Source of the DNA: Candidatus Sigynarchaeum calidifontis
Lineage (GTDB): Archaea; Asgardarchaeota; Lokiarchaeia; Sigyniarchaeales; Sigyniarchaeaceae
Assembly: GCA_030587475.2 (NCBI GenBank)
Contig: JAUQYZ020000089.1
Location: forward strand, 1 to 64,000
Reading direction: 5' to 3'
Length of the DNA stretch: 64,000 nucleotides
Shown here piece by piece: positions 748 through 58,394 of the stretch. A model generated the notes under the pieces. That model searched no databases. It was not told where the DNA came from and saw nothing but the letters and a program-made list of their open reading frames with translations. The stretch's first letter is position 1. Each line of letters opens with the position of its first letter. The translations under genes and the position numbers were made by a program.

Positions 748-1566
748 GTGAACAAGGAAAAAGAAAGGAACGGCAACATCATCACCGTCGATGGATTGAA
801 GAAACGATTTGGTAGCGTGAAGGCAGTTGACGGCATAACATTTCAAGTTCATCCCGGGGAGGTGTTCGGCCTCCTCGGGCCGAATGGCGCAGGAAAGACA
901 ACGACGATCAAGGTCTTGCTCGGCTTGCTAGAGCCCACGGAAGGCAACGTGCGGGTGCTCGGGCTCGATCCTCTCAAGGACGACGTGCAGATCAAGCAAC
1001 GGATAGGCTACGTCGCGGAGGAACCGCAGATCTACAAAGCTCTCACGCCCCTCGAGCTGTTCGAGTTCATTGCATCGGTGCGGAGGCTGGACGGGGCACA
1101 AGTGACCGCCAAGGCGAAAGAATATATGGAAAGCCTAGGAGCATCCGAATATTTCAACCGCAACATCGCGACGCTATCCCGCGGGAACAAGCAAAAAGTG
1201 CAGATCATCTCCGCCTTGCTGCACGATCCGCCCCTCCTGATCATGGACGACCCGCTGCTTGGCCTCGACGCGAAGACCGTGAAGGTCGTGAAAGAAATCA
1301 TCGATTTGCACACGAAACGCGGCGGTGCGGTCATTTTTTCCACACACGTCATGGAAGTCGCCCAGGAGCTATGCCACAGGATCGCCATCATCAACAAGGG
1401 AACGATCGTGGGCATGGGCACGTTTGAAGAGCTTCGCAAGCAGGCGAACAAGGCCGGAGCGAACCTCGAGGACGTGTTCTTGCGCCTCACCGAGCAAGAC
1501 GAGTCCGTGAATGCCATAATCGCCAAGTTGCGTGAATCATTCAATCACGAGGAAAAACGCTCTTGA
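748..1566 (+). CDS. ABC transporter ATP-binding protein (CcmA/DrrA-like exporter family)
   Basis: Walker A GPNGAGKTT, signature LSRGNKQKV, Walker B LLIMDDP (D in place of the usual E), H-loop STH. Confidence 0.95.
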   Translation: MNKEKERNGNIITVDGLKKRFGSVKAVDGITFQVHPGEVFGLLGPNGAGKTTTIKVLLGLLEPTEGNVRVLGLDPLKDDVQIKQRIGYVAEEPQIYKALTPLELFEFIASVRRLDGAQVTAKAKEYMESLGASEYFNRNIATLSRGNKQKVQIISALLHDPPLLIMDDPLLGLDAKTVKVVKEIIDLHTKRGGAVIFSTHVMEVAQELCHRIAIINKGTIVGMGTFEELRKQANKAGANLEDVFLRLTEQDESVNAIIAKLRESFNHEEKRS

Positions 1567-1576
1567 GGTGATGAAC

Positions 1577-3322
1577 ATGGGAGGGAAAAAAGCGAGCCTC
1601 TATAACATTGCCAGCAAGGTGCGGGACGAGGCATTTCTCGAAGGCCAACTCCAGTTCGCCGGCAGTAACCAAGCACGAGTCCTCGAGCGGCTCGAGAAGA
1701 ACAGGAACGATGCCAAGCGCCAGCAGCTGGCCTTGAAACTAGTGTATAGTGCCGTGCTTGGTTTTCTCCCGATCGTGCCCCTCTACGCTTATTTTCAAGT
1801 GACAGATATTCTCAAGGGAAGCATGATACCCGTGGACATCCTCGTGTTTATTTCCGTGATGCTCCTCGTGATCTATTTTGGCATGGTCGCGATGTACTTG
1901 TTCATCCTGGGCGTGCAATCCGTGAGCGGGTTCATGTCCGGGGAAGCATTCGAATGGCTCGAAGTGCTGCCGATCCCGAGGAAAGATCTCCAGAAAATCG
2001 CGTTTGTCGTGCTATGGCGCGCCTTCGACGTTCCCATCATAGTCGTCGTGTTGGCTTTCCCTACCATAATGGCCGTGGTAACAGGAAGTGTCATCGTGTT
2101 TTTCACGTGCTTGGTCGCTTCCATCTTGAATGGACTTTTCCTTTTCTGCATCGTCGTCCTGATCGCAGAAAAGTTCAACCGCGTTCTCAAGGGCGGCGAG
2201 ACGAATTCTCGCAAGGCGAGCGCTATTCGAGTCTTCGCCATGCTCGGCGCCGTCATTGCCATGAGCTCGACCGGCCTCGTCATCAACGTGGTGATGCGGT
2301 CTATGGAAACAATTATTTCGAGCTTCGCGGGCTTGCAAGATGCGAGCACGGTCAACGTGCTCATCAGCTTGATCCCGTTTCCATTCGCCGCAAGCTTTCT
2401 CGTTTCCTTCGCCATCTTGCCCACCATTGCGACATCGACGCCCTTGATCTTATCGAGCGTGCTTGGCATCTTGATCCTGGCCCTTCTTACATGGTTGTTG
2501 TATCGCCGCGTGCTGGGAAAGCTGCGGAGCATCACCTCGCATGCCGCACGAACGACACCTGATGCTGTCAAGGAATCCACGAAGATCCTCGTGGTGCGAG
2601 ACATCAAGCCGGTTACCCCCGTCAAGGCCTTCATGCGCAAGGATCTCGCTTCGATCACGAGGGATTTCCAGGGTGCAATATACCTGTTCATGCCCCTTGT
2701 GTATCCCTTTGTCATATTTCTCCCGTCAATGCAAGGCTTGCAGTCGATAACCGGCGTGGATCTCTTCATCTTCGCGATGCTGTTATTGGTCATTCTCGTC
2801 GTGATGAACGCGGGCATGCTAGTTACCGGTTTGCTCAGCATAGATGATTCGGGCGCATCGATCATCGCATCGCTGCCCGTGATACCGCGGGATCAAGCAA
2901 AAGCGAAATTGAAGATCATATGCACTGTGCAGCTCGCTTCATCGTTGCTCTCCATCATCTTCTCGGTAGGTGTCCCGGAAGCACTTCCTCTCATGGCATT
3001 TTTCCTTGGATACTGCCCCGTGAGCGTAACCGTCGCGATGGTGACGTTCGCAGCGAAAGTGCGACTTTTCGGAAAGATGCGATACAAGTACGTGCTCGAT
3101 GAGGTCAACGTGGAAAGGAAGGCACTCAAGTGGGTAGCCATTCTAGGCATAGACAGCGCATTACTGGGGGGGCTGTTCTTCTTGACAATTTTTGCAGGAC
3201 CAGTTGCCGGAACCTGGGGAATTGTCTTGATGATATCTGCCGCAGGTGGCATTGGATTCGTGCTGATCTTGAGCATCCTCAACGCGATGTTTCCCAAGAT
3301 GCAAGCCAAGAACGTCGGGTAG
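1577..3322 (+). CDS. Multi-pass membrane protein, putative ABC exporter permease
   Basis: About 14 hydrophobic segments in two halves; directly follows the ABC ATPase; GAGGTG RBS at 1565-1570 favours the ATG at 1577 or 1571. Confidence 0.8.
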   Translation: MGGKKASLYNIASKVRDEAFLEGQLQFAGSNQARVLERLEKNRNDAKRQQLALKLVYSAVLGFLPIVPLYAYFQVTDILKGSMIPVDILVFISVMLLVIYFGMVAMYLFILGVQSVSGFMSGEAFEWLEVLPIPRKDLQKIAFVVLWRAFDVPIIVVVLAFPTIMAVVTGSVIVFFTCLVASILNGLFLFCIVVLIAEKFNRVLKGGETNSRKASAIRVFAMLGAVIAMSSTGLVINVVMRSMETIISSFAGLQDASTVNVLISLIPFPFAASFLVSFAILPTIATSTPLILSSVLGILILALLTWLLYRRVLGKLRSITSHAARTTPDAVKESTKILVVRDIKPVTPVKAFMRKDLASITRDFQGAIYLFMPLVYPFVIFLPSMQGLQSITGVDLFIFAMLLLVILVVMNAGMLVTGLLSIDDSGASIIASLPVIPRDQAKAKLKIICTVQLASSLLSIIFSVGVPEALPLMAFFLGYCPVSVTVAMVTFAAKVRLFGKMRYKYVLDEVNVERKALKWVAILGIDSALLGGLFFLTIFAGPVAGTWGIVLMISAAGGIGFVLILSILNAMFPKMQAKNVG

Positions 3323-3737
3323 ATGCTTCAGCCTCGAAGTGGGCACGACGAGGAACGTGCAAAGAAGCTTTCGCTATCGGTCATTTGGTATGTCTTTTTT
3401 TTTCCATTCCAAATAACAAGCACGTGATGTTGCTTTTCACCAATAACCATCAATAATGATATCATTGCTTCCATCGCCAGCATCGTGAACGCGAGAGCGA
3501 CAAGATCGACCGGTTATGGCCTTTATACCCATTCACGTGGCTTTTTTCTTCCGGTGAATGTATCGATCTCTACCTCCTTCATTCTCTTCGTCCCTTCCAT
3601 CGTGATATTTATATGGGATTCAAGGATATAAACCATGAGGCATTGTAGCATCGCACCGCTGGAGTTCTCGATGGAAACGCACGTGCAAGCCATGTCCATG
3701 TTCATCAACCAGGATCGCGCTTAGAACGGGGAATGAA

Positions 3738-5009
3738 GTGAATATGGATCAAGCCAAGAAACAAATGGATTTCTTTTCGGTTACCGGCATAAATAACTAC
3801 GAATCCAGGAACCACCTTGCCACCATCGACACGCTGCGCGGGATTTCCGTTGTCTTGATGCTCCACATGCATTGCGCGCTTGCTTGGCACTCCAGTGAAT
3901 GGTCCGCACTTTCCCGATTAATGTTTTACACGACAGACTTCGTTGCACCCGCTTTGTACACGATCATGTCGATTCTTGCCAACATGATCAGCCTGGAATC
4001 TCGTCGTGGTCAAGGGGGCAAGTATTCGCTTTCTCGGGGTGCCGCGCTGCGAGCTTCTTTCTTGTTCATGTACGGGGAATCGTTGAACATCCTCACTTTT
4101 AACCGGCTCGGTTGGTACTCGTTAACAACGTGGAATGTCATCCTTGTAATCGCCGTGTTCACGTTAATCTTGCCGTCGTTACTCAAGATCAAGCCCGTCA
4201 TTCGCATCGCGATCGCCGCGTGCATTGCCATCGTGTATTTCTGGGTGGTCGACCTCGCCATGACCCACATGGCCGGAATTCCAATCGATATAAATAACGT
4301 TCAAGCCGCAAACCTTGTAAACCCGGCCACGTTGCCTTACTGGCTTCTCTTTTACCATGATATGATGACCCCCATCTTCTCGTGGATGATCATCCCGCTC
4401 GTGGTTCCCTTGGTCTTCAGCCGCTTTGTCAAGGTTCTCGTCGCTGGTGAACGACATCGATGGGTGCACGAGATCAAGCGGATTGCAGGGATAGGATCAT
4501 TGTTCGTCTTGATAGGCGTCGTTACAGGGCTATGGCGCATTCCCGACTACGTGATAAGGAATCATGTCCAGCTCACGACACCGGACGCGTATTTCACGTG
4601 GCCATTTCCGGATGGAGAGCCGCTATTCTTGATCCGCCACACGCCCCAGTACATGATTTACAACACGGGCATGGTATGCCTGCTCTTCTCGCTGGTCGCG
4701 TACATCCAGCTCCCGACGGGGAAAAGACTGCCTTTTCAAGGTATTTTGATTAGCCTCGGTAAAATGTCCCTCACGGGCTTCAACTTGAGTCTATATGCAT
4801 TCATAATTCCACTATCCTTCTCTCTGCCGGTCTTCTACATCATCGTAATCCCCGGTATCGTGCTCGTCACGTGGCTCTTTCACGCGTGGTACACGAAAGG
4901 GCGCGGGATCGGCAGCCTCGAATGGTTGATGCACATCCATGTCAATACCATTTCCTATTACCTCGATAGATATCGGAAATCGAGACGCACGTTGTCATTT
5001 TCATCATAA
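3738..5009 (+). CDS. DUF1624/HGSNAT-like membrane acyltransferase family protein (paralog 1)
   Basis: N-terminal IDTLRGISVVLMLHMH motif, about 10 TM segments, C-terminal GSLEWLM (DUF418-like). Confidence 0.7.
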   Translation: MNMDQAKKQMDFFSVTGINNYESRNHLATIDTLRGISVVLMLHMHCALAWHSSEWSALSRLMFYTTDFVAPALYTIMSILANMISLESRRGQGGKYSLSRGAALRASFLFMYGESLNILTFNRLGWYSLTTWNVILVIAVFTLILPSLLKIKPVIRIAIAACIAIVYFWVVDLAMTHMAGIPIDINNVQAANLVNPATLPYWLLFYHDMMTPIFSWMIIPLVVPLVFSRFVKVLVAGERHRWVHEIKRIAGIGSLFVLIGVVTGLWRIPDYVIRNHVQLTTPDAYFTWPFPDGEPLFLIRHTPQYMIYNTGMVCLLFSLVAYIQLPTGKRLPFQGILISLGKMSLTGFNLSLYAFIIPLSFSLPVFYIIVIPGIVLVTWLFHAWYTKGRGIGSLEWLMHIHVNTISYYLDRYRKSRRTLSFSS

Positions 5010-5155: not shown

Positions 5156-6496
5156 TTGGCAGAAGACTTAAAACGGGTTGAAATGAATTCAACAAACAAG
5201 ATTCGCTCGGGGACATTCCCCAAAACTCTTGCCTGGGCAATCAATCGCGATGCCCGGCCCCGCGTGCCCACGATCGACACGCTGCGCGGCATCTCTATCA
5301 TCATGGTGCTCTACATACATCTCGCGGGCGCATGGAGGGCCCCGGATTGGTCGACCCTCTTGCGACTGCAATGGTACGCAACTGAGTTTTTCGGGCCAGC
5401 GATGTTCATCACGATCTCCCTTGTCGGTAACATGGTGAGCCACTTCGCGCGTAAAAATCGTGATAGCGGCGATCAATCGATGCCCATGAACCGGCGACCG
5501 CTCGCTTTACCACGCAAGTTGTTGCTGAGAAGCTCTTTCTTATTCATCGTTGGCGAGTGCATCAACGCCATTTTCACGGGACGATTGGGTTTGCTTCATC
5601 TCACGGGCTGGAACATGATAACCACTATTGCATTGTTTGGGCTCTTGATTCCGGTCATGTTGCGAATACCCAAGATAGCACGATTGCTATTAGCCGCGAG
5701 TATCTTGCTCGCATATTACCCGATAATGAACTGGTCCATCGCGCCACTCGATCCATTCGATATCGATTTGCTATGGATCTCTCCGGAAAAATTTGCGGAT
5801 CCACGCGTGCTCGTGTATTGGTTCCTTTTCTTCCACGACATGATGGCACCCGTGTTTTCCTGGCTCGCCGTTCCACTTATCGCCTCGGTGGTCTTTGAAA
5901 GTATGGTTTCTAAGCTAACAAATGGAGACAGCAAAAAAATTGGCCGCGAATCGGCACGCGTGGCACTCGTTGGTGTTGCAATGATCTTGATCGGAATCGT
6001 TTCCGGTTTCCAGATCGCTCCGGACTACGTCGGTAGATTGAACACGGAGATCGCCACGCCTGATGCGTACATCCAATGGCCATGGGCAGGTGTTTTCATT
6101 TTCTGGATCAAAAGCACGCCACAATACATCGTCTACAATTTGGGCATTGTTTTTCTCGCGTTCAGTGCATTCTCATACGTGCAAATAGGGAAAAAGAGAG
6201 TTCTACCCGGCGAGAATTTCGTGAACAGTTGCGGGCGTTTTTCGCTAACGATCTTCATCGCCAGCTATATCCTCTCGCAAATTCCTCTCGAGCTTCCCCT
6301 TCCCTTGTTTTACATCTTGGCAATACCCATCATCATCTCCATTACCTGGGTCACGAGAGCATGGGAAAAACATTTGAGTGGCGTCGGCTCGATCGAGTGG
6401 ATGATGAACGTACACGTCGTTACAATCTCCTTCCTTTTAGACAAAATGAAAGAGAGAAAGAAAGGGCAGAAGACCGATCCGAAGTTGGATTTATAA
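5156..6496 (+). CDS. DUF1624/HGSNAT-like membrane acyltransferase family protein (paralog 2)
   Basis: IDTLRGISIIMVLYIH, FHDMMAPVFSW, TPDAY, TPQY and GSIEWMM motifs shared with the upstream paralog. Confidence 0.7.
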   Translation: MAEDLKRVEMNSTNKIRSGTFPKTLAWAINRDARPRVPTIDTLRGISIIMVLYIHLAGAWRAPDWSTLLRLQWYATEFFGPAMFITISLVGNMVSHFARKNRDSGDQSMPMNRRPLALPRKLLLRSSFLFIVGECINAIFTGRLGLLHLTGWNMITTIALFGLLIPVMLRIPKIARLLLAASILLAYYPIMNWSIAPLDPFDIDLLWISPEKFADPRVLVYWFLFFHDMMAPVFSWLAVPLIASVVFESMVSKLTNGDSKKIGRESARVALVGVAMILIGIVSGFQIAPDYVGRLNTEIATPDAYIQWPWAGVFIFWIKSTPQYIVYNLGIVFLAFSAFSYVQIGKKRVLPGENFVNSCGRFSLTIFIASYILSQIPLELPLPLFYILAIPIIISITWVTRAWEKHLSGVGSIEWMMNVHVVTISFLLDKMKERKKGQKTDPKLDL

Positions 6497-7207
6497 CCAG
6501 ATCAAGTGGTCAAGCAAGCCTTTAACGCGGGCATGTTGATGGACGAGCGGTATCTTGCCCGCGTCCGTCGCCGCGTGTGCATCCGAGCCGAGGGTAAACC
6601 GTGGCATCGTGAGCCCTTGCTCGTGGACAGTAGCCAGCACGAGATCCAGGCCGTTCTTGTGCGCGGGCGAGAGCTTTGCCTCGTTCAGCTCCAGGCCAAT
6701 GTTGTGGCGGACGATCAAGTCGACCTTCTCGACCAGCATGCTGAATTCCGGGTGGGAGATCACGACCGGCATCCCCTTCATGCCGAGATCGTGAAGCACC
6801 TCGCGAATGGCGATCGCCACCTCGACCGGGCCCGCGTCGTCCCGGCCCTCGATGAGGACGATGTCGAGCTCGTCACAGAAGGGAGCGACGTGATCGCGGA
6901 ATGATGCCTTGTACTCGTGCGAAGTGGTACAAAACTCGATGCCTGCGTGCACGGAGACGCCGAGCTTGGTCAGGGCATGCTCGCTGATTCTTCCAATCGC
7001 ATCGATATACGATCGAAGGTTGTCACGGCCGCGGAACTCGGGCACGAAGGCAAAATTTCCATCCTGGTCGACGTGATCCGTAATAGCGACCTCTGCGCAA
7101 CCGGCAGCCGCGCATACCCTGGCAACAGACAGCGGCGTGCTCTCGCCATCGCTGAAGGTCGTGTGTACGTGATAATCTTGCGGCGCGGTCATGTCCACGA
7201 TGCTCAC
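6491..7207 (-). CDS. PHP-domain metallo-phosphoesterase (histidinol-phosphatase-like family)
   Basis: DYHVHT, ITDH, GIE and GSDAH metal-binding motifs. Confidence 0.9.
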   Translation of the reverse strand: MSIVDMTAPQDYHVHTTFSDGESTPLSVARVCAAAGCAEVAITDHVDQDGNFAFVPEFRGRDNLRSYIDAIGRISEHALTKLGVSVHAGIEFCTTSHEYKASFRDHVAPFCDELDIVLIEGRDDAGPVEVAIAIREVLHDLGMKGMPVVISHPEFSMLVEKVDLIVRHNIGLELNEAKLSPAHKNGLDLVLATVHEQGLTMPRFTLGSDAHAATDAGKIPLVHQHARVKGLLDHLIWL

Positions 7208-7234
7208 CAGGGATGCTCAAGAGCGCCATGCCGG

Positions 7235-8563
7235 TTATTTAATCACAGACCAACCGGCGATGCGAGTGAATATCTCGAACGGCCTCGAATAATCGCCGTA
7301 AACGACGGAAACGTGGTGGGCGATGCCGTTCATGACGATCTTGTCGAGCACGTCACGGACGCTGCCATCAAATTCGACCTTCGCATACGTGCCCTTGAGC
7401 TCCTTGGCCATGGGCACGGCCCTCGCGCTTTGCAAGAACACGCGATATGCGCCCTGGCAATAGTCGATCCGCGCGATCGAGATGGCACCAGGCTTCAAGA
7501 CAAAATCAGCGGTCACTCCCTTCCCGCCCGCATGGTATGTTTCGAGTGAACACTCGGACTTGCCATCCCACGTGTTGCACGGCGCGACGCCGCAATGCCA
7601 GAGCAGCGCAAAGTTTTTCACGATGTTCACTTGCGAGAAGTCGGCGAGGTATGGCGTTTCACCGCCGATCGCAGCATGCGCGATCATGGTAAGCGCCCCG
7701 AGCACGTCACCCTCGCATGCCATGATCTTACCTTCCGATTGCAGCAGCGACATGGCCGCGCACGGGGCGATGCCATACGTGGCTGCAAACTCCGGCCAGC
7801 AGCGGATCGCCAGGGCAGTCAAATTGTTTCGGGTCATAAACACGTCGATCTTTGCCGCGAGCGACGCTACCTTATCTAATTGCGTGCTGGAAAGCGAATC
7901 AACCTTGAACACGACCATGAGCCGTTTACGTTGCAGCGCAATTTGCTCCGGAGTAATATCGATATTAAAAATATCCGCGAGCTCATAGTGATCGATCAAC
8001 ACCCCTGTCATGCGGTAGAGATCGGGCTCGTCAACATCGAGATTGAAGAACCCGTGCGCCCGGTACCCAGCAATGCCAATCCGCGCACTCTTGAACGACG
8101 CCTTAATGCGGAGCGCGTCGATCCACGCGCTATCAATCGAATCCCCGATGACCACGTGGTAATCGCGCGTGCCAGCCTTGTAGAGATTGGAAGCGTCGAG
8201 GTTCACGCCACACACGGAATTGAGCCGGATCTTTCCGCCGTTGTAGGGCAGCTCGTCCAGGCCCCAAAGCAAGATGGGTACGCGCAAGGCCTTGTTGAAG
8301 ATCAACGCAAGGTGCCCGAGATGGAACGTGCCCGCGATGAGGACGAGCCCGTCGAGTTGTCTCGTTGCAAGCTCGTTGGCTGCCTTTTCCGCATCGGGGA
8401 TCTCGATTACCAAGGAATCGATGAAATGCCACGTGACGTTCTCGATGGCTTCCAAGTCCGCCTTTATCTTGGCATAGATCTCGCCTGCAGCTTCGAAATC
8501 GAACGTCTTCCGCGCGAGGCAAGCAACACCGATGCTGACAGGATATCTCGCCATGTTTTTCAC
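7235..8563 (-). CDS. L-fucose/L-arabinose isomerase-family protein, probable sulfoquinovose isomerase (SqvD/SftI-like)
   Basis: Fucose-isomerase family motifs IRCWPE, ACEGD, WHCG, GIAHH; ARKTFD and GGKIRLNS motifs recalled from SqvD; operon context. Confidence 0.7.
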   Translation of the reverse strand: MKNMARYPVSIGVACLARKTFDFEAAGEIYAKIKADLEAIENVTWHFIDSLVIEIPDAEKAANELATRQLDGLVLIAGTFHLGHLALIFNKALRVPILLWGLDELPYNGGKIRLNSVCGVNLDASNLYKAGTRDYHVVIGDSIDSAWIDALRIKASFKSARIGIAGYRAHGFFNLDVDEPDLYRMTGVLIDHYELADIFNIDITPEQIALQRKRLMVVFKVDSLSSTQLDKVASLAAKIDVFMTRNNLTALAIRCWPEFAATYGIAPCAAMSLLQSEGKIMACEGDVLGALTMIAHAAIGGETPYLADFSQVNIVKNFALLWHCGVAPCNTWDGKSECSLETYHAGGKGVTADFVLKPGAISIARIDYCQGAYRVFLQSARAVPMAKELKGTYAKVEFDGSVRDVLDKIVMNGIAHHVSVVYGDYSRPFEIFTRIAGWSVIK

Positions 8564-9444
8564 TTGCTCGCGCGCTGCCGCGCGCTTTTCTCGACGATCT
8601 TGATAGACGCGGAGAAATCTTCTTTCCCCAAGTTCTCGTCCATCCCCACGTTGTAAATCCCGCGAACATAGTTTGCGACTTCTAGACTCAAGCCCAGGCT
8701 TCTCGCGTAATCGATAATCAAGTTCATGTCTTTGGCCATGTGCTCGAAGGGAAACTTAGGAGTGAAGTCCCGCGCTTTGATCGTGGCGGCTTTCGAGTCC
8801 AGGTAGAAGTTCTGCCCCCCGCCATAGGATATTGCCTTGACTACCGCGTCCATGTCGAGCCCTGCAGCACTGGCCAGGACGAGCATCTCGTTCACGCCGT
8901 TTTGAATTTCGCCAACAAGCATATTGTGGCACAGTTTCATCGCGAGGCCCGATCCGTTCGGCCCCATGTGGATGATGTTCTTGCCCATGCATTGGAGAAG
9001 AGGAATGACCGCATCGAACGTGTTTTTATCACCGCCCACGAGGATCCCGAGGTCACCAGATATCGCGGCGGCCTTGCTCTTCACGACGGGCGCGTCGATC
9101 ATCGTGCCTCCCTTTTCCCGCACCTTGCTGGCGAGCTCCCTTGACACGACGGGGGAAATGGTGCTCATATCGATGACGACCGTTCCGGGCCGCATCACCG
9201 GGAGAATCTGGCCGATCACGTCGCGCACGTTCTTGTTGCTCGGCACCATTATGATGATATGCGTGGCTTTGCCGGCGAGTTCGGCGACGGAACCGCACGG
9301 TTTCCCGCCAATCTTGGCCATCTTTTCTACTTGCGCCTTGTCAATGTCATAAACGAACGTTTCGTGTCCTGCCTTGATGATCCGCTCCGACATTGACTCG
9401 CCCATGATGCCGAGCCCGATGAATCCTACCGTGAACTTGTCCAT
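8560..9444 (-). CDS. NAD(P)-dependent beta-hydroxyacid dehydrogenase, probable sulfolactaldehyde reductase (SftR/YihU-like)
   Basis: GFIGLGIMG Rossmann motif, catalytic K in MKLCHN; substrate loop DAPVVKS in place of DAPVSGG. Confidence 0.7.
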   Translation of the reverse strand: MDKFTVGFIGLGIMGESMSERIIKAGHETFVYDIDKAQVEKMAKIGGKPCGSVAELAGKATHIIIMVPSNKNVRDVIGQILPVMRPGTVVIDMSTISPVVSRELASKVREKGGTMIDAPVVKSKAAAISGDLGILVGGDKNTFDAVIPLLQCMGKNIIHMGPNGSGLAMKLCHNMLVGEIQNGVNEMLVLASAAGLDMDAVVKAISYGGGQNFYLDSKAATIKARDFTPKFPFEHMAKDMNLIIDYARSLGLSLEVANYVRGIYNVGMDENLGKEDFSASIKIVEKSARQRASK

Positions 9445-9457
9445 CGTCGATACACCA

Positions 9458-10126
9458 TCATTGCTTGCCTATTTCCGTCCCGTCCCACGCGTCCTGGAAA
9501 AGCTTCAGGCCCTTGTCGGTGAAAGGGTGCGAGAAGCTGTCCTTGTAAACATCCATCGATGCTGTCACGATGTCCGCGCCGGCGAGCGCTGCATCGACAA
9601 TTTGACGGCCAGAACGTACCGCTGCCACGATGATCTCGGTCTCGAATCCGTAATACTGGTAGATCTCTGCGATCTTGGAGATGAAATCCTCGGTTGGCGT
9701 GCCCGCTGCCTCGTGCCAGCCGACAAAGGGAGAGCAATACGTGCAGCCGATGCGAGCCGCTTGGATGGCCTGTGACGGGGAAAACACGAGCGTGAGGTTT
9801 ACCCGTATATCATCCTCGACGAGTTTCTTGGCCGCCACGAGACCTTGCTCCGTGCACGGGATCTTGATAACGAAGTTCTCCGACATCGGCGCGATCTTTT
9901 TTGCCTCGGCGATCATGTCGGCAGACTTGTCTAGATGCGGGTTGATCTCGACCGAGATCGGAAATTCCTTTCCATTGAATTCTTGGGCAATCTCCTTGAT
10001 GACGGTGAAGAAGGGCTTGCCAGATGCTCTGATATGACGTGGATTCGTGGTCACGCCATCGATGCCCCAATTCTCGTGGGCATATTTTATTTCATCGAGC
10101 TTTGCAGAGTCAAGAAAATATTTCAT
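9458..10126 (-). CDS. Transaldolase/FSA-family protein, probable 6-deoxy-6-sulfofructose transaldolase (SqvA/SftT-like)
   Basis: FLDSA, GVTTNPRH, Schiff-base K in VIKIP, SPFVGW, AAVRS; TNPR Arg and VGW Trp replace the canonical TNPS/T and VGR. Confidence 0.8.
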   Translation of the reverse strand: MKYFLDSAKLDEIKYAHENWGIDGVTTNPRHIRASGKPFFTVIKEIAQEFNGKEFPISVEINPHLDKSADMIAEAKKIAPMSENFVIKIPCTEQGLVAAKKLVEDDIRVNLTLVFSPSQAIQAARIGCTYCSPFVGWHEAAGTPTEDFISKIAEIYQYYGFETEIIVAAVRSGRQIVDAALAGADIVTASMDVYKDSFSHPFTDKGLKLFQDAWDGTEIGKQ

Positions 10127-10208
10127 CAGTCAACAGCTCCAGAACGGTTGCTTTTCGTGTTGGAAATTGATGCGATCAATTGATATTTTTCGATAAGCAA
10201 TACCTATT

Positions 10209-12824
10209 ATGGCTATAGAAAACGCACGGATTGCTCGATTCTGTGCAGCTGGAAAATCATGCCTCGCCGGCTTCTCCAGCTCGCCGATTTTATTATTTCT
10301 ATTCGTTATCGTTCCATGGACGGTAAATCAATTGTTCGAAACCAGCTTGAATGACGAGCCACTCGTCATCATCGCAAGCGCAATCCCGTTTTCCTTCTTT
10401 TCACTGTTCCTCGTTTTGTTACCGCGAAAGGCACGCGTGTTCGTGTTCATCGCGGCCAGCATCGCCGCGGGCTTTCTCTCAATACTAGTAGGGCTGCTTT
10501 TCTGGGTTGGCCTTGACGAAACCTCTATACCATCGGCGGTGGCCATTGCTGCTTATCTGGTGGCAGGTTTCATTTCCGTGTACCTCGATGTGCTCGGGAA
10601 AAACGTGCCACGGGCAAGCAACGTCGCCGAGGGGCAAATCCCGCGCTTCCTGGCACACGGAATTGGCCTTATGGCCCCCGCTTTGGTCGTGGGGATATTT
10701 ATGCAAGTTATGGGTATCGGAGCTACCTTGTTTATCGTCGCGGCTTTCGTGCACGTGGCTGCTATTCTCGGCCGTATCGTTGCCCGCGGCCAGCTCGATC
10801 AAGATCGGAGCTCTGTAGAAGAAAATGAATCGAAGGAAGAGAGAAGGAAAACGCGCCACCACGCTATCAATCTCGAGACGACGATGCTGATGTTGCTCGT
10901 GTTGCCGGTCATCTTCATCTTCTCCTCGCTCGTCAACGTGATGACCGTCGATCGAGTTTTGCTCGGCTATGGGTGCCTTGCTGCCGGGGTGTTCATTTCG
11001 TTCTTGATGTGGGACTGCATCTGGGTAGCGCGAATCGCCGTGCCGTGGACGCTTTTCGGGCTGTTTTGGTTTTTCATGATCCTCGCGCCATCGTCGGGGT
11101 TCGAATGGGGCATTCTCGCGGCCGGGCTTGCAGCGGGCATCGTGGCGGGCGAGATCGTGCTGAAGGTGACGACCTTACCCCGGTCTCCCCGGCATTCCGC
11201 CGAGGGCCTGGTGCTCTTTTTCATGCTCGTGCTCGTCGTGCTGGGCGCGGCGCTGGGAACCGAGTATCAATCCATCATCGAGGACGAGGAGTCGTATCAA
11301 TGGATCCCCGTGCTGTATATCGTCGTGGCAGGGGCGATCGTAGCCAACTTGACCCTCGTGGAACGCGTGGTTCTCAAGAAAAAGGCGCGCGGGGCACTGC
11401 TCCGCGAATTTCTCAAGTATCCTGTCCAGGAAAGCCGTCCCCTTGCATCAAGAAAAAAGCTCGTGGCGATATTGCTTGCAGCGCTCGTCGGTATGCCGTT
11501 ATTCGGCATCTCGATCGGTATGACCGCGACTCTTTATGTGCATGTGCATCTTGGCATGACCATGTACGACGTGCACGGGAACCCGGTCACCGAGGTCGAT
11601 CTGCGCCCGGGCACGGCCATGATACTTTTTTCGACTCCAAGCCCCGTGGGAACGCCGCACGGGGAACTCATCCGGCCAGGCAAGTCGGTGCGGCTCGGGG
11701 GGTATTATTACGGGTACCAGAACAGCACGGACAAGCCGTTCACGCGTGACCAGGTCATCGATTGGGTCGGCAATAACAACGACGTGTTCTCGTTCGGGTT
11801 CATGGGAACGGGTGGCGATTCGATGACCCCGGAAAACATATCCGCTATCAAGGCAATTAACGACCAGGCACGGTTCTACTACATGGCGTTTGCAACGACG
11901 CTATATGAAGATGCCGGGTCGCCTGGCGGCACGGGCCCGACGTGGGGAAATTCTCATTATCCATCCGTTCAGTTCAATGCCACGATCCATGGCATGACAT
12001 TGAAACTTGCAAACGGCAGCGAGGCGATCGGCGTCCGCAGGACCTCGAACAATGATTCTGCACATCTCATGGATCTCGGCAATGTTGCATGGGCGGATTA
12101 TTTCGCATGGATTTACGAGAACCGCAGCAAGCAGTTCCACGCGAACGGCGTCGCCATCGACGAGGTCATGTGGCAAGGATACTGGGACGTGGATAAAAAG
12201 AATGGTGGCGTGCCACTTCGCGATTACACGTCACCAGAACAGGTACGTGCCACATGCTATGCATGGCTCCAGCATATCGATGCAAAGATGAGCGTGGAGA
12301 TCATCACGCAGGCCTTCTGGCCGGAGGCACAAATATACCAGCAAGGCGTGTGGGGCGAGATTGCATTCCGCGCGGGAGGCCCGTATGGAAGGCGTGTCGA
12401 CGACCGGCCCGCATCTGTCTGGTACGACATCGCGCCCATGAACTGGATGGATATCGTCGCGAACATGTACGACATTGCTTCCAGGAACAAGAGCTATATC
12501 TGGGCCGCGTGGTACGAGCCGGGCGACATGAAGGGGTTAGAATACGCCATTGCCACGTACCTCATGGGCAAGCCCAACAACTGCACGTGCCTTGTTTTCC
12601 AGCCGCATCCTGGCTATTACCCAGAGCAGAATCTCGTCGGCTATGCCGTTCGCACGGTCAAGGACGAGGTGGAAGCCCATCCAGAGCTGTTCGACATCGA
12701 GCTCGGCGATGCACTGGGATACATGGAATTACGAGCCGGCATCGGCGGCCATTATTACCAGCGGACCTTCCAGAACGGTATCGTCATCGCGAACCCGTTC
12801 CACCCGCACGTTGCAGGTTTCTAA
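10209..12824 (+). CDS. Multi-TM membrane protein with C-terminal extracellular putative glycoside hydrolase (GHL15-like TIM barrel)
   Basis: About 13 TM segments in the N-half; C-half has MDLGNVAWADY, NGVAIDEV and YQRTFQNGIVIANP, typical of GHL15-like proteins. Confidence 0.6.
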   Translation: MAIENARIARFCAAGKSCLAGFSSSPILLFLFVIVPWTVNQLFETSLNDEPLVIIASAIPFSFFSLFLVLLPRKARVFVFIAASIAAGFLSILVGLLFWVGLDETSIPSAVAIAAYLVAGFISVYLDVLGKNVPRASNVAEGQIPRFLAHGIGLMAPALVVGIFMQVMGIGATLFIVAAFVHVAAILGRIVARGQLDQDRSSVEENESKEERRKTRHHAINLETTMLMLLVLPVIFIFSSLVNVMTVDRVLLGYGCLAAGVFISFLMWDCIWVARIAVPWTLFGLFWFFMILAPSSGFEWGILAAGLAAGIVAGEIVLKVTTLPRSPRHSAEGLVLFFMLVLVVLGAALGTEYQSIIEDEESYQWIPVLYIVVAGAIVANLTLVERVVLKKKARGALLREFLKYPVQESRPLASRKKLVAILLAALVGMPLFGISIGMTATLYVHVHLGMTMYDVHGNPVTEVDLRPGTAMILFSTPSPVGTPHGELIRPGKSVRLGGYYYGYQNSTDKPFTRDQVIDWVGNNNDVFSFGFMGTGGDSMTPENISAIKAINDQARFYYMAFATTLYEDAGSPGGTGPTWGNSHYPSVQFNATIHGMTLKLANGSEAIGVRRTSNNDSAHLMDLGNVAWADYFAWIYENRSKQFHANGVAIDEVMWQGYWDVDKKNGGVPLRDYTSPEQVRATCYAWLQHIDAKMSVEIITQAFWPEAQIYQQGVWGEIAFRAGGPYGRRVDDRPASVWYDIAPMNWMDIVANMYDIASRNKSYIWAAWYEPGDMKGLEYAIATYLMGKPNNCTCLVFQPHPGYYPEQNLVGYAVRTVKDEVEAHPELFDIELGDALGYMELRAGIGGHYYQRTFQNGIVIANPFHPHVAGF

Positions 12825-12951: not shown

Positions 12952-13542
12952 CTATGCGATGGTCGCGAGAAAATCCTTGAGCTTCTTGAGTGATTTCCCC
13001 CGGTGTGATACCCGGTTTTTTTCATCAAGGTCCATCTCCGCGAACGTTTTCACGTTGCCAGCGGGCTCGCTAGAAACGAATATCGGGTCGAAACCAAATC
13101 CCTTGTTTCCGCGTTCCTCGAACGCGAGCGTGCCATCAACCCGGCCCATGAACACCTTGATTTCACCTGATTGCTTCAAGTGCAAGCACGTGCAGACCTC
13201 GAAGTACGCGGCTCGCTGATCCGTGTTCTTGAATTCCTCCATGAGCTTCAAGATACCCTTGCAACCGAGCATCCGCTTGACCTCGGCGGAGAACACGCCG
13301 GGAAAGCCGTTGAGGGCCGGCACGAACAACCCGGCGTCCTCGACGAACACGTTTCCCTTGCAGATCCTGGACACGGCTTCCACCTTGTACCTGGCGACCT
13401 CGGCCAGGGAATCAGCCTGCAACTCGGGCAAGTCGACCTTGAGCTGCTTCAGCGTGAGGTTAGGAACGTTCCCTTCAAGGTAAGCCCGTGCCTCCTCGTA
13501 CTTGTTGCGATTGCCCGTCGCGAAGTACAGCATCATGACCAT
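12952..13542 (-). CDS. rdgB: Non-canonical purine NTP pyrophosphatase (RdgB/HAM1 family)
   Basis: FATGNRNK, VEDAGL, GFPGV, GFGFDPIF, KNRVSHRG; start uncertain (13533-13554). Confidence 0.95.
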   Translation of the reverse strand: MVMMLYFATGNRNKYEEARAYLEGNVPNLTLKQLKVDLPELQADSLAEVARYKVEAVSRICKGNVFVEDAGLFVPALNGFPGVFSAEVKRMLGCKGILKLMEEFKNTDQRAAYFEVCTCLHLKQSGEIKVFMGRVDGTLAFEERGNKGFGFDPIFVSSEPAGNVKTFAEMDLDEKNRVSHRGKSLKKLKDFLATIA

Positions 13543-13556
13543 TACAGACCACACGC

Positions 13557-14312
13557 TCAGAGTATCAAGATAGAGAGGGGGACATACTCCGTTTGCGGGA
13601 TGAATGCCTCGCCGAATTCACTGAAGATCTCGTCGCCGCGGAGCCTGGCCGTTTTCTCCGCCCAGGCCATGATGCGTTCGAGGACCTCGGCTTGCGAGTG
13701 GTATGCCTTGGTAAATGTCGCCACCTTTTCCTTCCAGAACGGCGAGATATCGACGATGCAGAACACGTTTGCTTCGACATAGGAAAACTTGCAAGACGGG
13801 GACTCGTACGTGTAATATCCCTTGGGCAGGACCTCCTTGTCATGGCCCCCATACGCCTTCCCGTGTACCGCGTGGTACACGGATTCCTTCACGAGCTCGG
13901 CTGTCTTCCTGTGTGACCTGTGCGCGTCGGTAACATGTGGTGAAAAAATGAGATCCGGTTGCCAATCGCGGATGAGCCCGGTAACTACTTTAACGCTCTC
14001 TCGATTGATATCAACCTCGTTCCAATTCAAGTTTACGAACTCGTTGACATGTAGACTCTTGATAGATTGCTTATATTCTTCTTGGCGCACCGAAGCGATG
14101 CGATCCTTGTCTTCATCCTTTGCATAACCACCAAGGCCAGATGTCATGAAGATCACGATGATCTCCGATCCGAGCGACGAGTATTTCAATATGGTCCCGC
14201 CACAGCTTATCAACTCGTCGTCAGGGTGGGGGGCAAAAATGAGAATGCGCTTCGGGATGACTACGGGCACTTTCTGCCCATCGATCTTGACCGTGTAAGG
14301 CTTGTCGCTCAT
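13557..14312 (-). CDS. PIG-L/LmbE family deacetylase
   Basis: APHPDDE, CGGT, DAHRSH, GEAF; the upstream part of the ORF-track call is unlikely to be coding. Confidence 0.9.
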   Translation of the reverse strand: MSDKPYTVKIDGQKVPVVIPKRILIFAPHPDDELISCGGTILKYSSLGSEIIVIFMTSGLGGYAKDEDKDRIASVRQEEYKQSIKSLHVNEFVNLNWNEVDINRESVKVVTGLIRDWQPDLIFSPHVTDAHRSHRKTAELVKESVYHAVHGKAYGGHDKEVLPKGYYTYESPSCKFSYVEANVFCIVDISPFWKEKVATFTKAYHSQAEVLERIMAWAEKTARLRGDEIFSEFGEAFIPQTEYVPLSILIL

Positions 14313-14500
14313 GAGACTCATCACGCGCTCGAAGATGTTGGTTGTATTCAAATCTTTGGTGGCGATATAGTTATATCGAATTTCTGCGATATTCAATCGT
14401 TGGTCACTGGTGAAAAAATACGAATCCAGAGAAAGCGGCCAAGCTGAAGCAAAAAGCCGAGGAGCTCTTCCAGCAAGAGAAATACGACAAGGCACTTGAA

Positions 14501-15490
14501 ATGATCGTGAAGGCGCTCGATGAGCATCCTGAAAACCCCCTTGCATGGCAATTACAAGGGCTTATTCAGGAAGCTTGCGGGTACAAGACCGAGGCCATCA
14601 CGAGTTTCAAGGAAGCCCTTGCCCGGGACGCGAACTGCGAGATGGCGTACGTCGGCATGGCCCGCGTGCACCGTGCCCGCAAAGACTTTTTCAAGGCCTT
14701 CCAGACCCTCGCAGAGGTCACGAGCCGCAATCCCGCGAGCGAGAACGTCCGGCAGATCATCCTCGACATATTGGAAAACGACAACAAGGCAGAATGGGAG
14801 GAGCTGTTCAAGACCCAACCCGAGATATTGGTCAAGCTCTTGCAAAACGCGGGGAACGATATCGATTTCAAGTACAAGCTCACGGGGGTCTTGAAAAACG
14901 TGGCGGTGGCAAAGCCCGAGCTTTTTCAAGGTAAAGCATTAGAGATCATCAATGAGCTCTCCAAGTCGAAGGATGACGAGATCCGAAGCACCGCGTACGT
15001 GTTACTCGTGGCCGCTTACGAAGCTAGCCCGATCATCATCGAAAATCACAAGTCGATTCTCTCGATGGGCGTCAAGGATCCCAATAACTACGTTCAAAAG
15101 GCGACAGGCGGCATCATCAAATCCATGCTCGAATATTTCCCGAATTTCCTGGCAGGCGAGGAAGAGTTACTCGTCCAGGCCCTCGAGAATCCCTTGATCG
15201 CGGACATCTTGCTCAAGACCCTGCCCGCGTGCCCGAATTGCCGCGACCAGGAGAACTTGTACCTGCAGAAGATCATCGAGGGCGAGAAGATGCTGCGCTT
15301 TTACTGCGAAAAGTGCGAAACGAAGTTTTACCGCCAGCCCGGTGCCAAGACCGTGCAAATCCTGGACAAAGCCGAGCAACGCATGAAAGGACCAATCGTT
15401 TGTCCTGAATGCAAGATGCAATATCTCACCTTCTCGGAAGCCGACAAGCTCTACTCTTGCTCGGTCTGCAGAAAGTGGTACACGCAATAG
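14501..15490 (+). CDS. TPR + HEAT-like helical protein with two C-terminal CxxC...CxxC zinc ribbons
   Basis: TPR units (ALDEHPENPLAW..., ALARDANCEMAY...); CPNC..CEKC and CPEC..CSVC; frame is open upstream to 14414 (see findings). Confidence 0.8.
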   Translation: MIVKALDEHPENPLAWQLQGLIQEACGYKTEAITSFKEALARDANCEMAYVGMARVHRARKDFFKAFQTLAEVTSRNPASENVRQIILDILENDNKAEWEELFKTQPEILVKLLQNAGNDIDFKYKLTGVLKNVAVAKPELFQGKALEIINELSKSKDDEIRSTAYVLLVAAYEASPIIIENHKSILSMGVKDPNNYVQKATGGIIKSMLEYFPNFLAGEEELLVQALENPLIADILLKTLPACPNCRDQENLYLQKIIEGEKMLRFYCEKCETKFYRQPGAKTVQILDKAEQRMKGPIVCPECKMQYLTFSEADKLYSCSVCRKWYTQ

Positions 15491-29233: not shown

Positions 29234-29505
29234 GAGAAATCCACTTTCATAAATACGATACAAATTGTGAGAATTATTCCGAGAATTGTCATGCTTGCCA
29301 GATTTGAACTCGATTTCTATATGAAGATGAGATGCAATTATATTTCCCTTCTTTTCTCTTTTCAGGCCAGTTAAACCCACTATCTTATTTCATGGATGTG
29401 CAGTGAAGATGGTTGATAATTGCATCACTCGAGAGACCGGCGGTTCGCTCGTCTTCTATGCGACATGATTGGAAATTTTTAAGCGATGACGGTTTTTTCC
29501 AACCC

Positions 29506-30957
29506 ATGAAAAAATCGAAGAGCAACATGGGATTGGTGAAAAGTCACATCGTACCCCGGTGGTATCATGATGCAAAGTTTGGCATCTTTATCCACTGGGG
29601 CTTGTATTCCGTCCCCGCGTACGCGCCGGTGGAGGGAAATTATCCCCAGTTATTGAAAAAAGGGTTCAAATACTTCTACAAGCATACACCCTATGCGGAG
29701 TGGTATCAGAATTCGCTGCGCATCGATGGCAGCCCTGTCCAGAAGTATCACGTGCAAACATACGGGAATCGGCCTTATGAGAGCTTCGCCGATGAATTCA
29801 ACTTGTTACTGCCCAAGTGGCGTCCCGGGGACTGGGCAGAGTTGTTCCAGCAAGCCGGGGCCAAGTACACGGTTCTCGTTACAAAGCACCATGATGGCTT
29901 CGTCATGTGGCCGACCGAGCACCCGAACCCGCTCAAGCCAGATTATCACGCGACCAGGGACATACCTGGCGAGCTTGCTCGCGAGGTGCGCGCCCGTGGC
30001 ATCCGATTTGGTGCATACTATAGCGGCACGCTCGACTGGTCGTTCCAGCCCGAACCCATCGTCGATTTCGCCACCATGGTCACCAACGGGCCGACGAGCA
30101 AGCAATACGTCGACTACGCGAACGCGCACTGGCGCGAGCTCATCGACAAATACAGCCCCTCGATCCTTTGGAACGACATCGGCTATCCCCCGGGCACCGA
30201 TGTCAACGAGATCTTCGCGTACTACTATAACAAGCATCCAGATGGATTGGTCAACGACCGCTGGGTTCAAGTCTCCTTGAGGGCACGTAATGCCTTGAAA
30301 ACGAGGTTTGTCAAGTGGCTTGCCAACGGGATAGCCGCCGCGGCGATTAGAAGCGGGAAGACCGAGCCCAACTTCGGTTATCACCACGACTACATCACTC
30401 CCGAGTATAAAATCTATCCCGCGATAAAGAAAGAGAAATGGGAATGCACGCGCGGCATCGGGTTCTCGTTCGGCTATAACCGGGTCGAGGATGAGCATCA
30501 CTATCTCACGGTCGATGCATTGGTGCATATGCTCGTCGACATCGTGTCAAAAAATGGCAATCTGCTCCTCAACATCGGCCCGATGGCGGACGGGACGATC
30601 CCGCCCGTCCAGCGTGATCGCGTCCTGGCACTGGGCCGCTGGCTCGCCACGAACGGGGAAGCCATCTACGGCACGCGGCCGTGGACGCGCCCGTCGGCCA
30701 TCACGGCAGATAACAATGCCGTGCGTTTCACGAGGAAGGGAAACGATCTCTTCGCGATCATCCTTGGTACGCCATCACGGCCACGCGTGGAGGTTTTATC
30801 GCTCCAGATTCCGGCAAGCAGCAAGTTACAGCTGCTTGGAAAGGAAGGCGAACTCGAATGGAAGCAAGAGGGTTCGAGCCTCGTCATGATAATACCGGAC
30901 TTCCCAACTGACGTGCCCGCCCACGCGATCAAGATAATCGGGGGATGTGCGGCTTGA
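29506..30957 (+). CDS. Alpha-L-fucosidase (GH29)
   Basis: WYHDAKFGIFIHWGLYSVP, AEWY, TKHHDGF, LWND nucleophile, VSKNGNLLLNIGP, GEAIYGTRPW. Confidence 0.95.
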   Translation: MKKSKSNMGLVKSHIVPRWYHDAKFGIFIHWGLYSVPAYAPVEGNYPQLLKKGFKYFYKHTPYAEWYQNSLRIDGSPVQKYHVQTYGNRPYESFADEFNLLLPKWRPGDWAELFQQAGAKYTVLVTKHHDGFVMWPTEHPNPLKPDYHATRDIPGELAREVRARGIRFGAYYSGTLDWSFQPEPIVDFATMVTNGPTSKQYVDYANAHWRELIDKYSPSILWNDIGYPPGTDVNEIFAYYYNKHPDGLVNDRWVQVSLRARNALKTRFVKWLANGIAAAAIRSGKTEPNFGYHHDYITPEYKIYPAIKKEKWECTRGIGFSFGYNRVEDEHHYLTVDALVHMLVDIVSKNGNLLLNIGPMADGTIPPVQRDRVLALGRWLATNGEAIYGTRPWTRPSAITADNNAVRFTRKGNDLFAIILGTPSRPRVEVLSLQIPASSKLQLLGKEGELEWKQEGSSLVMIIPDFPTDVPAHAIKIIGGCAA

Positions 30958-41834: not shown

Positions 41835-42027
41835 GGTTCCAGCGCTTCGTGGATGTTCCTTTTCCCGCGGATGCCTTCTAACCAGGTATAAACGAGCATG
41901 CTCACCAAAACTATAGTTTCTTTCGATTTAATTTTGAGACCAAGGATCGCATGGTTCGATTCCAATGCACAAAAATGATGGTGCATTAGACTATCATGCA
42001 AAGACATGTCAAGCGACGGGAGAAGGA

Positions 42028-44629: not shown

Positions 44630-44769
44630 CATTATTGGTATAGTCCGGCAAATTCCATCGCCTTTTTTTCTTACCGGCTTTAAGTGCCCTTTTTATATTT
44701 TTTTTTGAAATGACTGGATGATGATTGTCACAAAAAAAGCGCTCTCGTTTTTCCTGGAATGGAGGCGAT

Positions 44770-56032: not shown

Positions 56033-56107
56033 GGCATTCACGTGATGCTTGCTTGAACCTAGCCTCGAGCGCCGGGAAAAAAAGGTTCGGAGCAAGACGA
56101 GAATGCA

Positions 56108-57878: not shown

Positions 57879-58394
57879 ATCAATGCATCTTCTTGCCTCG
57901 TGGCAATAAGCTTTCATTTACGAGCAAGTGAAGATTTACGCGAATAGCATTATATCGAATGCCCGAAGGCTATAACTACCTAGCACTATATATGTCTGGG
58001 CGAAAAAAGCTATTGGAGGAAAACGAGGTGAGCGAGCGTTGCCCTTTTCTGGCATATCGGATTTCGATGATGATGATCTGGTGATCGAATCGGTCATCTT
58101 TATAGCCGCTTTCCTTCTCGTGGCGATCGTCACGGCCAATACCATTGATGAATTTAAGACCCGTGAACGGGTGTTGGGTTATCCAGCAAGTTGCTGACAT
58201 CTTGGTTAAGAATCTAAAAAAATGACATCGAAAAGGTGAACGAGCAGGTCTTAGCATTGGTGAAAGATCGGATGTTAAGTAACAACATGATCGCTTGAAT
58301 GCTTTTTATCAAGGCATTCCAGAACACGATGTACGTGTTCTCTTTTGGGTATATCGGGATTTCTTTATTCCATGGCGTTCTGGATGATGGAGCT

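Follow-up and report, generated by a model that had tools for sequence, protein, structure and literature searches.

Sequence analysis of a predicted sulfofructose-transaldolase-type sulfoquinovose operon in the Asgard archaeon Candidatus Sigynarchaeum calidifontis

Sulfoquinovose, a sulfur sugar that abounds in the membranes of plants and algae, is made in amounts of about ten billion tonnes per year. The sulfofructose-transaldolase pathway for its degradation (sulfo-TAL, also named sulfo-SFT) is represented by Priestia (Bacillus) aryabhattai SOS1, P. megaterium DSM 1804 and Eubacterium rectale, and an anaerobic variant that forms 2,3-dihydroxypropanesulfonate (DHPS) has been described for E. 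rectale and Clostridium symbiosum. According to a 2026 review, no sulfoquinovose pathway has been characterised in archaea, and a full-text search of the literature for sulfoquinovose together with Asgard archaea or Lokiarchaea returned papers on N-glycans only. The pathway has been described only in bacteria in the literature searched; its kind is known, and the host domain reported here is new. The present analysis concerns a run of four genes that point in one direction on the minus strand (positions 6491-10126) of a stretch of 64,000 nucleotides from Candidatus Sigynarchaeum calidifontis (GenBank assembly GCA_030587475.2, contig JAUQYZ020000089.1, positions 1 to 64,000), called the window below. 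A first-pass annotation, made from the letters alone, had proposed that three of these genes form a sulfofructose-transaldolase operon in a probable Asgard archaeon. The genes and the spacer in front of them are the following.

Positions 9458-10126, minus strand: transaldolase (P0001), 222 amino acids, first gene of the operon, orthologue of the SftT/SqvA-type sulfofructose transaldolases (SF-TAL) by homology.
Positions 8560-9444, minus strand: NAD-dependent beta-hydroxyacid dehydrogenase (P0002), 294 amino acids, candidate sulfolactaldehyde reductase, SftR-like by gene context and not of YihU type.
Positions 7235-8563, minus strand: aldose-ketose isomerase of the L-arabinose/L-fucose isomerase fold (P0003), 442 amino acids, candidate type 2 SftI/SqvD.
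Positions 6491-7207, minus strand: PHP-family (histidinol-phosphatase-like) phosphoesterase, 238 amino acids, 33.8 bits to Pfam PHP.
Positions 10127-10208, minus strand: intergenic spacer of 82 nucleotides 5' of the transaldolase gene, common to it and to a divergent gene, likely promoter as read from the sequence.

Our analysis suggests that the operon probably encodes the cytoplasmic core of the sulfo-TAL/sulfo-SFT pathway. In the proposed scheme the isomerase would convert sulfoquinovose to 6-deoxy-6-sulfofructose, and the transaldolase, by way of a Schiff base on Lys88, would transfer the non-sulfonated C1-C3 unit to glyceraldehyde-3-phosphate, giving fructose-6-phosphate that would pass to glycolysis and releasing 3-sulfolactaldehyde. 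The reductase would turn 3-sulfolactaldehyde and NADH into DHPS, with regeneration of NAD+, and DHPS would be excreted from the cell. This reading is built on homology and signature motifs, on fold and membership of the clade, on gene linkage that is conserved and on an archaeal host; from these we infer the substrates, the products, the role of the reductase, the export of DHPS and the entry of sulfoquinovose. The proposal of such an operon in an Asgard archaeon was borne out by the best matches and clade of the transaldolase, by the homology and fold of the isomerase, by the recurrent linkage of the three genes with those of YihQ-type GH31 glycosidases in Asgard and bacterial genomes and by the archaeal nature of the genome.

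The best matches of the transaldolase in the PDB were three entries of the P. megaterium sulfofructose transaldolase, BmSF-TAL (8BC2-4; 302-307 bits, best E-value 6e-91), whereas the best ordinary transaldolase in the PDB reached 170 bits against 307 for BmSF-TAL. The protein shares 65% identity with the P. megaterium gene and matches the Pfam family PF00923 (TAL_FSA, 159.9 bits). The motifs TTNPRH and SPFVGW, which had been singled out as departures from the canonical transaldolase motifs, are present and are identical in BmSF-TAL. The same holds for the lysine of FVIKIPC: Lys88 aligns to Lys89 of BmSF-TAL, on which the Schiff base with sulfofructose arises according to a review (PMC12890257). 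Motif identity with the solved BmSF-TAL also points to the residues that would contact the sulfonate. Eighty relatives, of which 31 are archaeal and 49 bacterial, were aligned alongside six short transaldolases of the ordinary kind from related archaea. All 80 relatives carry GW and His31, with mostly Arg or Lys at position 30 (NP[RKN]H), in contrast to GR and NP[ST]L in the ordinary short enzymes of the outgroup. In the corresponding tree the SF-TAL clade of 80 sequences, into which the operon protein falls, is set apart from the ordinary archaeal TalC-type enzymes by a long branch with 100% support in the Shimodaira-Hasegawa-like approximate likelihood ratio test (SH-aLRT). The comparison with B. 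megaterium SqvA that had been called for therefore came out in favour of the proposal, and the protein does not cluster with ordinary transaldolases. Judged by its sequence, the transaldolase is an SF-TAL orthologue.

The sole NCBIfam match of the isomerase is NF048012, the SftI sulfoquinovose isomerase (201.4 bits, E-value 2e-59, positions 9-427 of 443). Pfam returned only a sub-threshold match to Fucose_iso_C, and the protein is annotated publicly as 'fucose isomerase' or 'hypothetical protein'. Its AlphaFold model (predicted local distance difference test 89.7) gave template-modelling (TM) scores of 0.83-0.85 to L-arabinose isomerase and 0.76-0.79 to L-fucose isomerase. Comparison with 79 loci encoding SF-TAL relatives revealed two deep isomerase subtypes. 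The operon isomerase shares 25-28% identity with the characterised subtype, that of Bacillus/Priestia (27% in the case of P. megaterium SqvD), and 55-65% with type 2, which occurs in Asgard archaea, in Caloramator (57% for the cluster gene), in other Clostridia and in metagenome-assembled genomes (MAGs) of spirochaetes and Leptospirales. The nearest homologue, with 87% identity, belongs to Candidatus Sigynarchaeum springense. With P. megaterium SqvD among the aligned sequences, residues E284, D286, D308, H323 and H417 are the same throughout the two subtypes, and this acidic and histidine set may represent the metal-binding or catalytic residues. A clostridial-type sulfoquinovose isomerase only 32% identical to the Bacillus type is already on record (PMC11659671). 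The earlier assignment to SqvD/SftI thus stands as regards homology, fold and conserved residues, but the identity to Priestia SqvD is only 27%, and the protein is better described as a candidate sulfoquinovose isomerase of the second subtype.

The distribution of these genes was surveyed in a sample of 400 Asgard genomes; the genomes are mutually related, so the counts describe linkage and were not subjected to a statistical test. The SF-TAL type was found in 38 genomes, 35 of them in the order of the host, the type 2 isomerase in 47 and the YihQ-type GH31 in 53. Among the 38 genomes with SF-TAL, the isomerase was present in 35, the GH31 in 33 and all three in 32, and in 32 of the 35 genomes with both SF-TAL and isomerase the two were encoded on the same contig. 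Eleven related loci were compared gene by gene: transaldolase and isomerase stand together in ten, the reductase is found in six, a GH31 gene follows that of the isomerase in four, and an AEC-family (Mem_trans) transporter occurs in three. The isomerase gene adjoins that of a YihQ-type GH31 in many loci.

The survey also yielded 12 Asgard genomes (G200, G207, G222, G232, G253, G278, G279, G038 and others) that encode the type 2 isomerase and lack an SF-TAL-type transaldolase. Several of them are 97-100% complete, and their isomerase often lies beside a YihQ-type GH31; these organisms may use another sulfoglycolytic branch, e.g., one with a transketolase or with a kinase and an aldolase. Additional enzymes were seen within the clusters of two relatives. 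In one of them (genome G018, contig C32; locus L022, positions 7095-8147, plus strand) a sulfite-oxidase-family molybdoenzyme, scoring 106 bits to SorA and 71 to MsrP and fused to a cytochrome b561/DUF4079-like membrane domain, is encoded between transaldolase and isomerase. In the cluster of Candidatus Lokiarchaeum ossiferum (locus L024, positions 13459-14706, plus strand) a BioF/Kbl-family acyltransferase is encoded between reductase and AEC transporter; it scores 461 bits to a serine palmitoyltransferase model, which is below cut-off.

The reductase is a two-domain beta-hydroxyacid dehydrogenase (Pfam NAD_binding_2 and NAD_binding_11), and the Asp at the end of its beta-2 strand (VYDI) is compatible with NAD(H). 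Reductases 47-84% identical to that of the operon are encoded directly 3' of SF-TAL genes in Asgard, Caloramator, Tepidibacillus, clostridial and spirochaete loci. An alignment of 14 archaeal and bacterial members revealed the common motifs APVVKS, MK(L/I)CHNMLV and GGGQNFY(L/I)D, which YihU does not have. The SF-TAL-linked (SftR-like) reductase family is defined here by this gene context, and from the context we read the operon enzyme as a candidate sulfolactaldehyde reductase whose family is not that of YihU.

The tight coupling of the three genes that had been noted at first was seen again on reading the DNA. Thirteen nucleotides separate the TGA stop of the transaldolase gene from the ATG of the reductase gene, and the TGA stop of the latter overlaps the GTG start of the isomerase gene by four nucleotides. 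An alternative in-frame ATG lies nine nucleotides (three codons) downstream of this GTG; it would leave a gap of five nucleotides and yield a protein of 439 amino acids, which is the length of the isomerase in public databases. The isomerase stop is separated by 27 nucleotides from the gene of the PHP phosphoesterase, behind which comes a T-rich tract; this gene is probably co-transcribed with the operon. No homologue of it was present in 90 related loci, so it does not belong to the conserved genes of the system. Upstream of the operon, an A/T-rich TATA-like box, GAAAAATATCA, is located at about 10172-10182, roughly 45-55 nucleotides before the transaldolase ATG, and a GGAG stands 12 nucleotides 5' of the same ATG; positions 10127-10208 are the likely promoter region. 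Across this spacer, a divergent gene (10209-12824, plus strand) encodes a protein of 871 amino acids. In it, a multi-pass membrane domain (N-terminal, about 450 residues) precedes a C-terminal domain (about 420 residues) that has no Pfam match. In G001, a genome of the same genus, the gene is conserved in position (71% identity), and language-model features place the C-terminal domain near clusters of GHL15 'hypothetical glycosyl hydrolase' (score 0.96, a lead only). The protein could serve, anchored in the membrane, in glycan processing connected with the operon.

In the genome, a YihQ-family GH31 is encoded on contig C205 (36874-38886), with sulfatase genes (Sulfatase and SGSH_C domains) on both sides. 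It scores 715.8 bits against NF007746 (YihQ), above the equivalog cut-off of 553, and keeps R301, W304 and the catalytic D405 and D472. The orthologue of the AEC-family transporter is found on contig C145, and these two genes are our candidates for sulfoquinovose release and transport. In related archaea the GH31 encoded within the cluster has the pocket QQRWF or QQQWY, and one cluster-linked Asgard GH31 scored 655 and 625 bits to solved sulfoquinovosidases vs 142 bits to YicI. The first-pass annotation had also proposed a search for DUF4867 (SqvB, also named SftX). This search came up empty in this genome (89% complete), as it did for G001, G009 and the closed genome of L. ossiferum, but recovered DUF4867 from P. 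megaterium and Caloramator. The organism may depend on other organisms to release free sulfoquinovose, or on its divergent GH31.

Enzymes that might act beyond DHPS were also compared. A thiamine pyrophosphate-dependent enzyme in the window (33802-35544) was rejected as sulfoacetaldehyde acetyltransferase (Xsc), acetolactate synthase scoring higher (362 vs 275 bits, all below cut-off). Five genes for glycyl radical enzymes are present in the genome (contigs C182, C265, C266, C226 and C205, the last at 1402-4767), two of them open reading frames of about 1120 amino acids; the one on C205 adjoins a TauE-family fragment at the contig end. As DHPS- or isethionate-cleaving enzymes the two examined were set aside, with 229-281 bits to IslA, isethionate sulfite-lyase or 6LON, vs 299-318 bits to choline lyase or glycerol dehydratase. 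With two of the five glycyl radical enzymes compared, no evidence of further DHPS breakdown was obtained from the genome.

Several results weigh against the operon as a sulfo-TAL core. The isomerase stays far below the SftI equivalog cut-off (201.4 vs 700 bits), which makes it a homologue and not an equivalog by NCBI's rule. All NCBIfam equivalog scores of the reductase are below cut-off, with tartronate-semialdehyde reductase on top (218.1 bits, cut-off 340.75) and ahead of YihU NF012005 (163.9 bits, cut-off 348). The first-pass annotation had stressed that the motif DAPVVKS places a basic residue at the sulfonate-binding Arg of YihU. The motif is present and K122 does align to YihU R123, but the sulfonate-pocket argument built on it fails, because His173 and Val177 replace Asn174 and Ser178 of YihU in the alignment and the YihU pocket is not reproduced. 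With that pocket absent and the equivalog scores below cut-off, the assignment of the reductase rests on its gene context. A search for a GH31 sulfoquinovosidase had been called for; the genome does contain a YihQ-family GH31, but on another contig, unlinked to the operon and among sulfatases, and with a divergent pocket, V-E-R-W-E vs the canonical Q-Q-R-W-Y (Q262 to V, Q288 to E, Y508 to E); the Glu at the sulfonate-holding position of Tyr508 makes its specificity uncertain. No importer, exporter or DUF4867 gene is found in cis at the operon.

The same enzymes might act on another sulfonated or 6-modified sugar, e.g., sulfofucose or sulforhamnose, or on sulfoquinovose derived from archaeal N-glycans, which would retain sulfo-TAL-like chemistry with another ecological substrate; we regard this as unlikely. 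The three altered positions among five in the pocket of the own GH31, its two flanking sulfatases, the variation of the cluster-linked archaeal GH31 pockets, the separate subtype of the isomerase and the occurrence of sulfoquinovose in the glycans of some archaea (PMC7491151, PMC12890257) are all in keeping with it. Set against these, the transaldolase is 65% identical, with its motifs kept, to an enzyme solved with bound sulfofructose, and the same isomerase subtype accompanies canonical QQRWY sulfoquinovosidases in bacterial clusters such as that of Caloramator.

It is still less probable that the operon has no connection with sulfonates at all and comprises an ordinary pentose-phosphate transaldolase, by chance the neighbour of an unrelated isomerase and of a reductase of the tartronate-semialdehyde or hydroxyisobutyrate type. 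The best family scores of the reductase, to tartronate-semialdehyde reductase and HIBADH, agree with this, and a resemblance to tartronate-semialdehyde reductases had been anticipated from the start as a point against the pathway; the score is indeed higher there (218 vs 164 bits), but it is below cut-off and gene context links the protein to SF-TAL. Among 41 related genomes (E<=1e-20) the SF-TAL type was found in 12, the ordinary short (TalC-type) transaldolase in 11 and both together in none. This pattern could mean functional replacement or hint at functional overlap, or it could be due to chance and phylogeny. Against an ordinary transaldolase, all 80 clade members have Trp in place of the phosphate-binding Arg of SPFxGR, and NP[RKN]H stands where the ordinary enzymes have NP[ST]L, the branch to the ordinary archaeal enzymes is long and fully supported, and the linkage with an SftI homologue and a YihQ-type GH31 recurs in archaea and bacteria. 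A second transaldolase-family gene, of the long type, is present in the genome on contig C242, so the operon transaldolase need not serve the pentose-phosphate pathway.

Finally, the 269 contigs and 5.18% estimated contamination of this 4.99-Mb MAG (89% complete), together with the bacterial origin of the closest characterised homologues, might suggest mis-binned bacterial DNA, but this is excluded by the tetranucleotide composition of the contig (C86) and of the operon, which is typical for the genome, by the flanking synteny (PIG-L, Ham1, 871-amino-acid gene, transaldolase, reductase, isomerase) kept in G001, and by the closed 6.04-Mb chromosome of L. ossiferum, where transaldolase, reductase, AEC transporter and isomerase are encoded together at 1.78 Mb and a YihQ-type GH31 at 2.99 Mb.

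The host is an Asgard archaeon, as had been supposed at first. Its genome encodes the ribosomal protein S8e (Ribosomal_S8e, 101.9 bits) and a full-length, eukaryote-like actin (Actin, 435.7 bits), its relatives are Promethearchaeota and Sigynarchaeum, and genomes of the same order bear the names Promethearchaeota, Hermodarchaeota, Hodarchaeota and Candidatus Lokiarchaeum ossiferum. The contig that carries the operon also carries Asgard-typical genes, whose products (Gtr1/RagA-like GTPase, PHD-finger, leucine-rich-repeat and HEAT proteins) resemble eukaryotic signature proteins and speak further against mis-binning. They are listed here with a tyrosine recombinase beside the GTPase gene.

Positions 55304-56095, minus strand: Gtr1/RagA-like small GTPase.
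Positions 56108-57049, minus strand: tyrosine recombinase beside the GTPase gene.
Positions 47863-49125, minus strand: PHD-finger protein.
Positions 40026-41834, minus strand: leucine-rich-repeat (LRR) protein.
Positions 58299-60281, plus strand: HEAT/armadillo-repeat protein.

The contig is also rich in genes of glycan-degrading enzymes, which fit a carbohydrate-scavenging lifestyle.

Positions 29413-30957: GH29 alpha-L-fucosidase.
Positions 37134-39128: GH127 beta-L-arabinofuranosidase.
Positions 44725-46761: acetyl-xylan-esterase-like hydrolase.
Positions 13557-14546: PIG-L deacetylase.
Positions 41965-42888: second PIG-L deacetylase.

A related cluster with the order transaldolase, reductase, AEC transporter and isomerase was noticed in WJJB01000116.1 (genome G002), deposited as 'Candidatus Bathyarchaeota archaeon Bin_245'. 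This MAG is placed in the same family as the Asgard genome studied here, and its public label is probably wrong.

The passage of DHPS to sulfur-reducing partners, suggested in the first-pass annotation, is speculative. A bolder interpretation is that one Asgard order possesses sulfoglycolysis as an established trait, maintained by vertical descent, and did not import it sporadically and recently, and that the DHPS feeds sulfite- or sulfate-reducing partners; this we consider unlikely. As a part of that interpretation, the SF-TAL-linked reductase might constitute a new sulfolactaldehyde reductase family, distinct from YihU, with a sulfonate pocket of its own formed by Lys122, Lys124 and His173. 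The trees of the transaldolase and of the isomerase cover no more than the 80 loci closest in similarity to the archaeal query and have long outgroup branches. In the former, rooted with ordinary archaeal enzymes, most archaeal sequences fall outside a mainly bacterial clade; in the latter, rooted with the Bacillus type, Clostridia fall outside an archaeal and spirochaete clade. Because the two gene trees disagree, and because of this choice of loci and the long outgroup branches, no donor is claimed for a transfer between bacteria and archaea.

The chemistry of the pathway is known, and it is common for bacteria and Asgard archaea to share catabolic operons, so the advance lies in host range and ecology and not in mechanism. 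The sulfo-TAL core occurs in about one tenth of the sampled Asgard genomes, mostly of one order and including that of the cultured L. ossiferum. If the operon acts as a sulfo-TAL core, the archaea closest to eukaryotes would gain a lifestyle of sugar fermentation with sulfonate excretion, and archaea would join the organosulfur cycle of anoxic sediments. Sulfoquinovose is also a concrete substrate to try for better growth of the very slow Asgard cultures, and the cultured relative makes the idea testable. Should the trait be vertical and DHPS pass to partners, the hand-off of organosulfonates would be part of the syntrophy of Loki-type archaea.

Compared with the described sulfo-TAL/sulfo-SFT systems of P. 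aryabhattai SOS1, P. megaterium DSM 1804 and E. rectale (SftT/SqvA, SftI/SqvD, SftR or SftD, SftG, SftX/SqvB), the operon is alike in the transaldolase motifs, the Schiff-base lysine and the 65% identity to BmSF-TAL, in a homologous isomerase of the same fold superfamily, in a reductase that follows the transaldolase as in the anaerobic DHPS-forming variant, and in a YihQ-family GH31 in the genome. It differs in its archaeal host, in the second isomerase subtype (25-28% identity) and in that no DUF4867 was found. The MFS importer and TauE exporter are not encoded in cis here, an AEC-family transporter appears in relatives, and the GH31 is unlinked and divergent. The resemblance is closer to an uncharacterised cluster of Caloramator proteoclasticus DSM 10124 (locus L048), which has the identical order of transaldolase, reductase and isomerase with identities of 69%, 51% and 57%, respectively. 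This cluster and similar ones of Clostridia and spirochaete MAGs share the isomerase subtype and the reductase motifs seen here. The Caloramator cluster continues with DUF4867 and a canonical QQRWY GH31, whereas the next gene here is that of the PHP phosphoesterase.

Likeness to the E. coli enzymes is more distant. The reductase and YihU are both beta-hydroxyacid dehydrogenases with 30% identity and a common catalytic Lys, but Asn174 and Ser178 of YihU are His and Val here. The own GH31 is 39% identical to E. coli YihQ, with R301, W304 and the two catalytic Asp residues retained but Q262, Q288 and Y508 changed to V, E and E. In the sulfo-EMP (Embden-Meyerhof-Parnas type) route of E. coli the sulfoquinovose isomerase YihS has an unrelated fold; the operon described here has neither the kinase nor the aldolase, and cleavage would be carried out by the predicted transaldolase.

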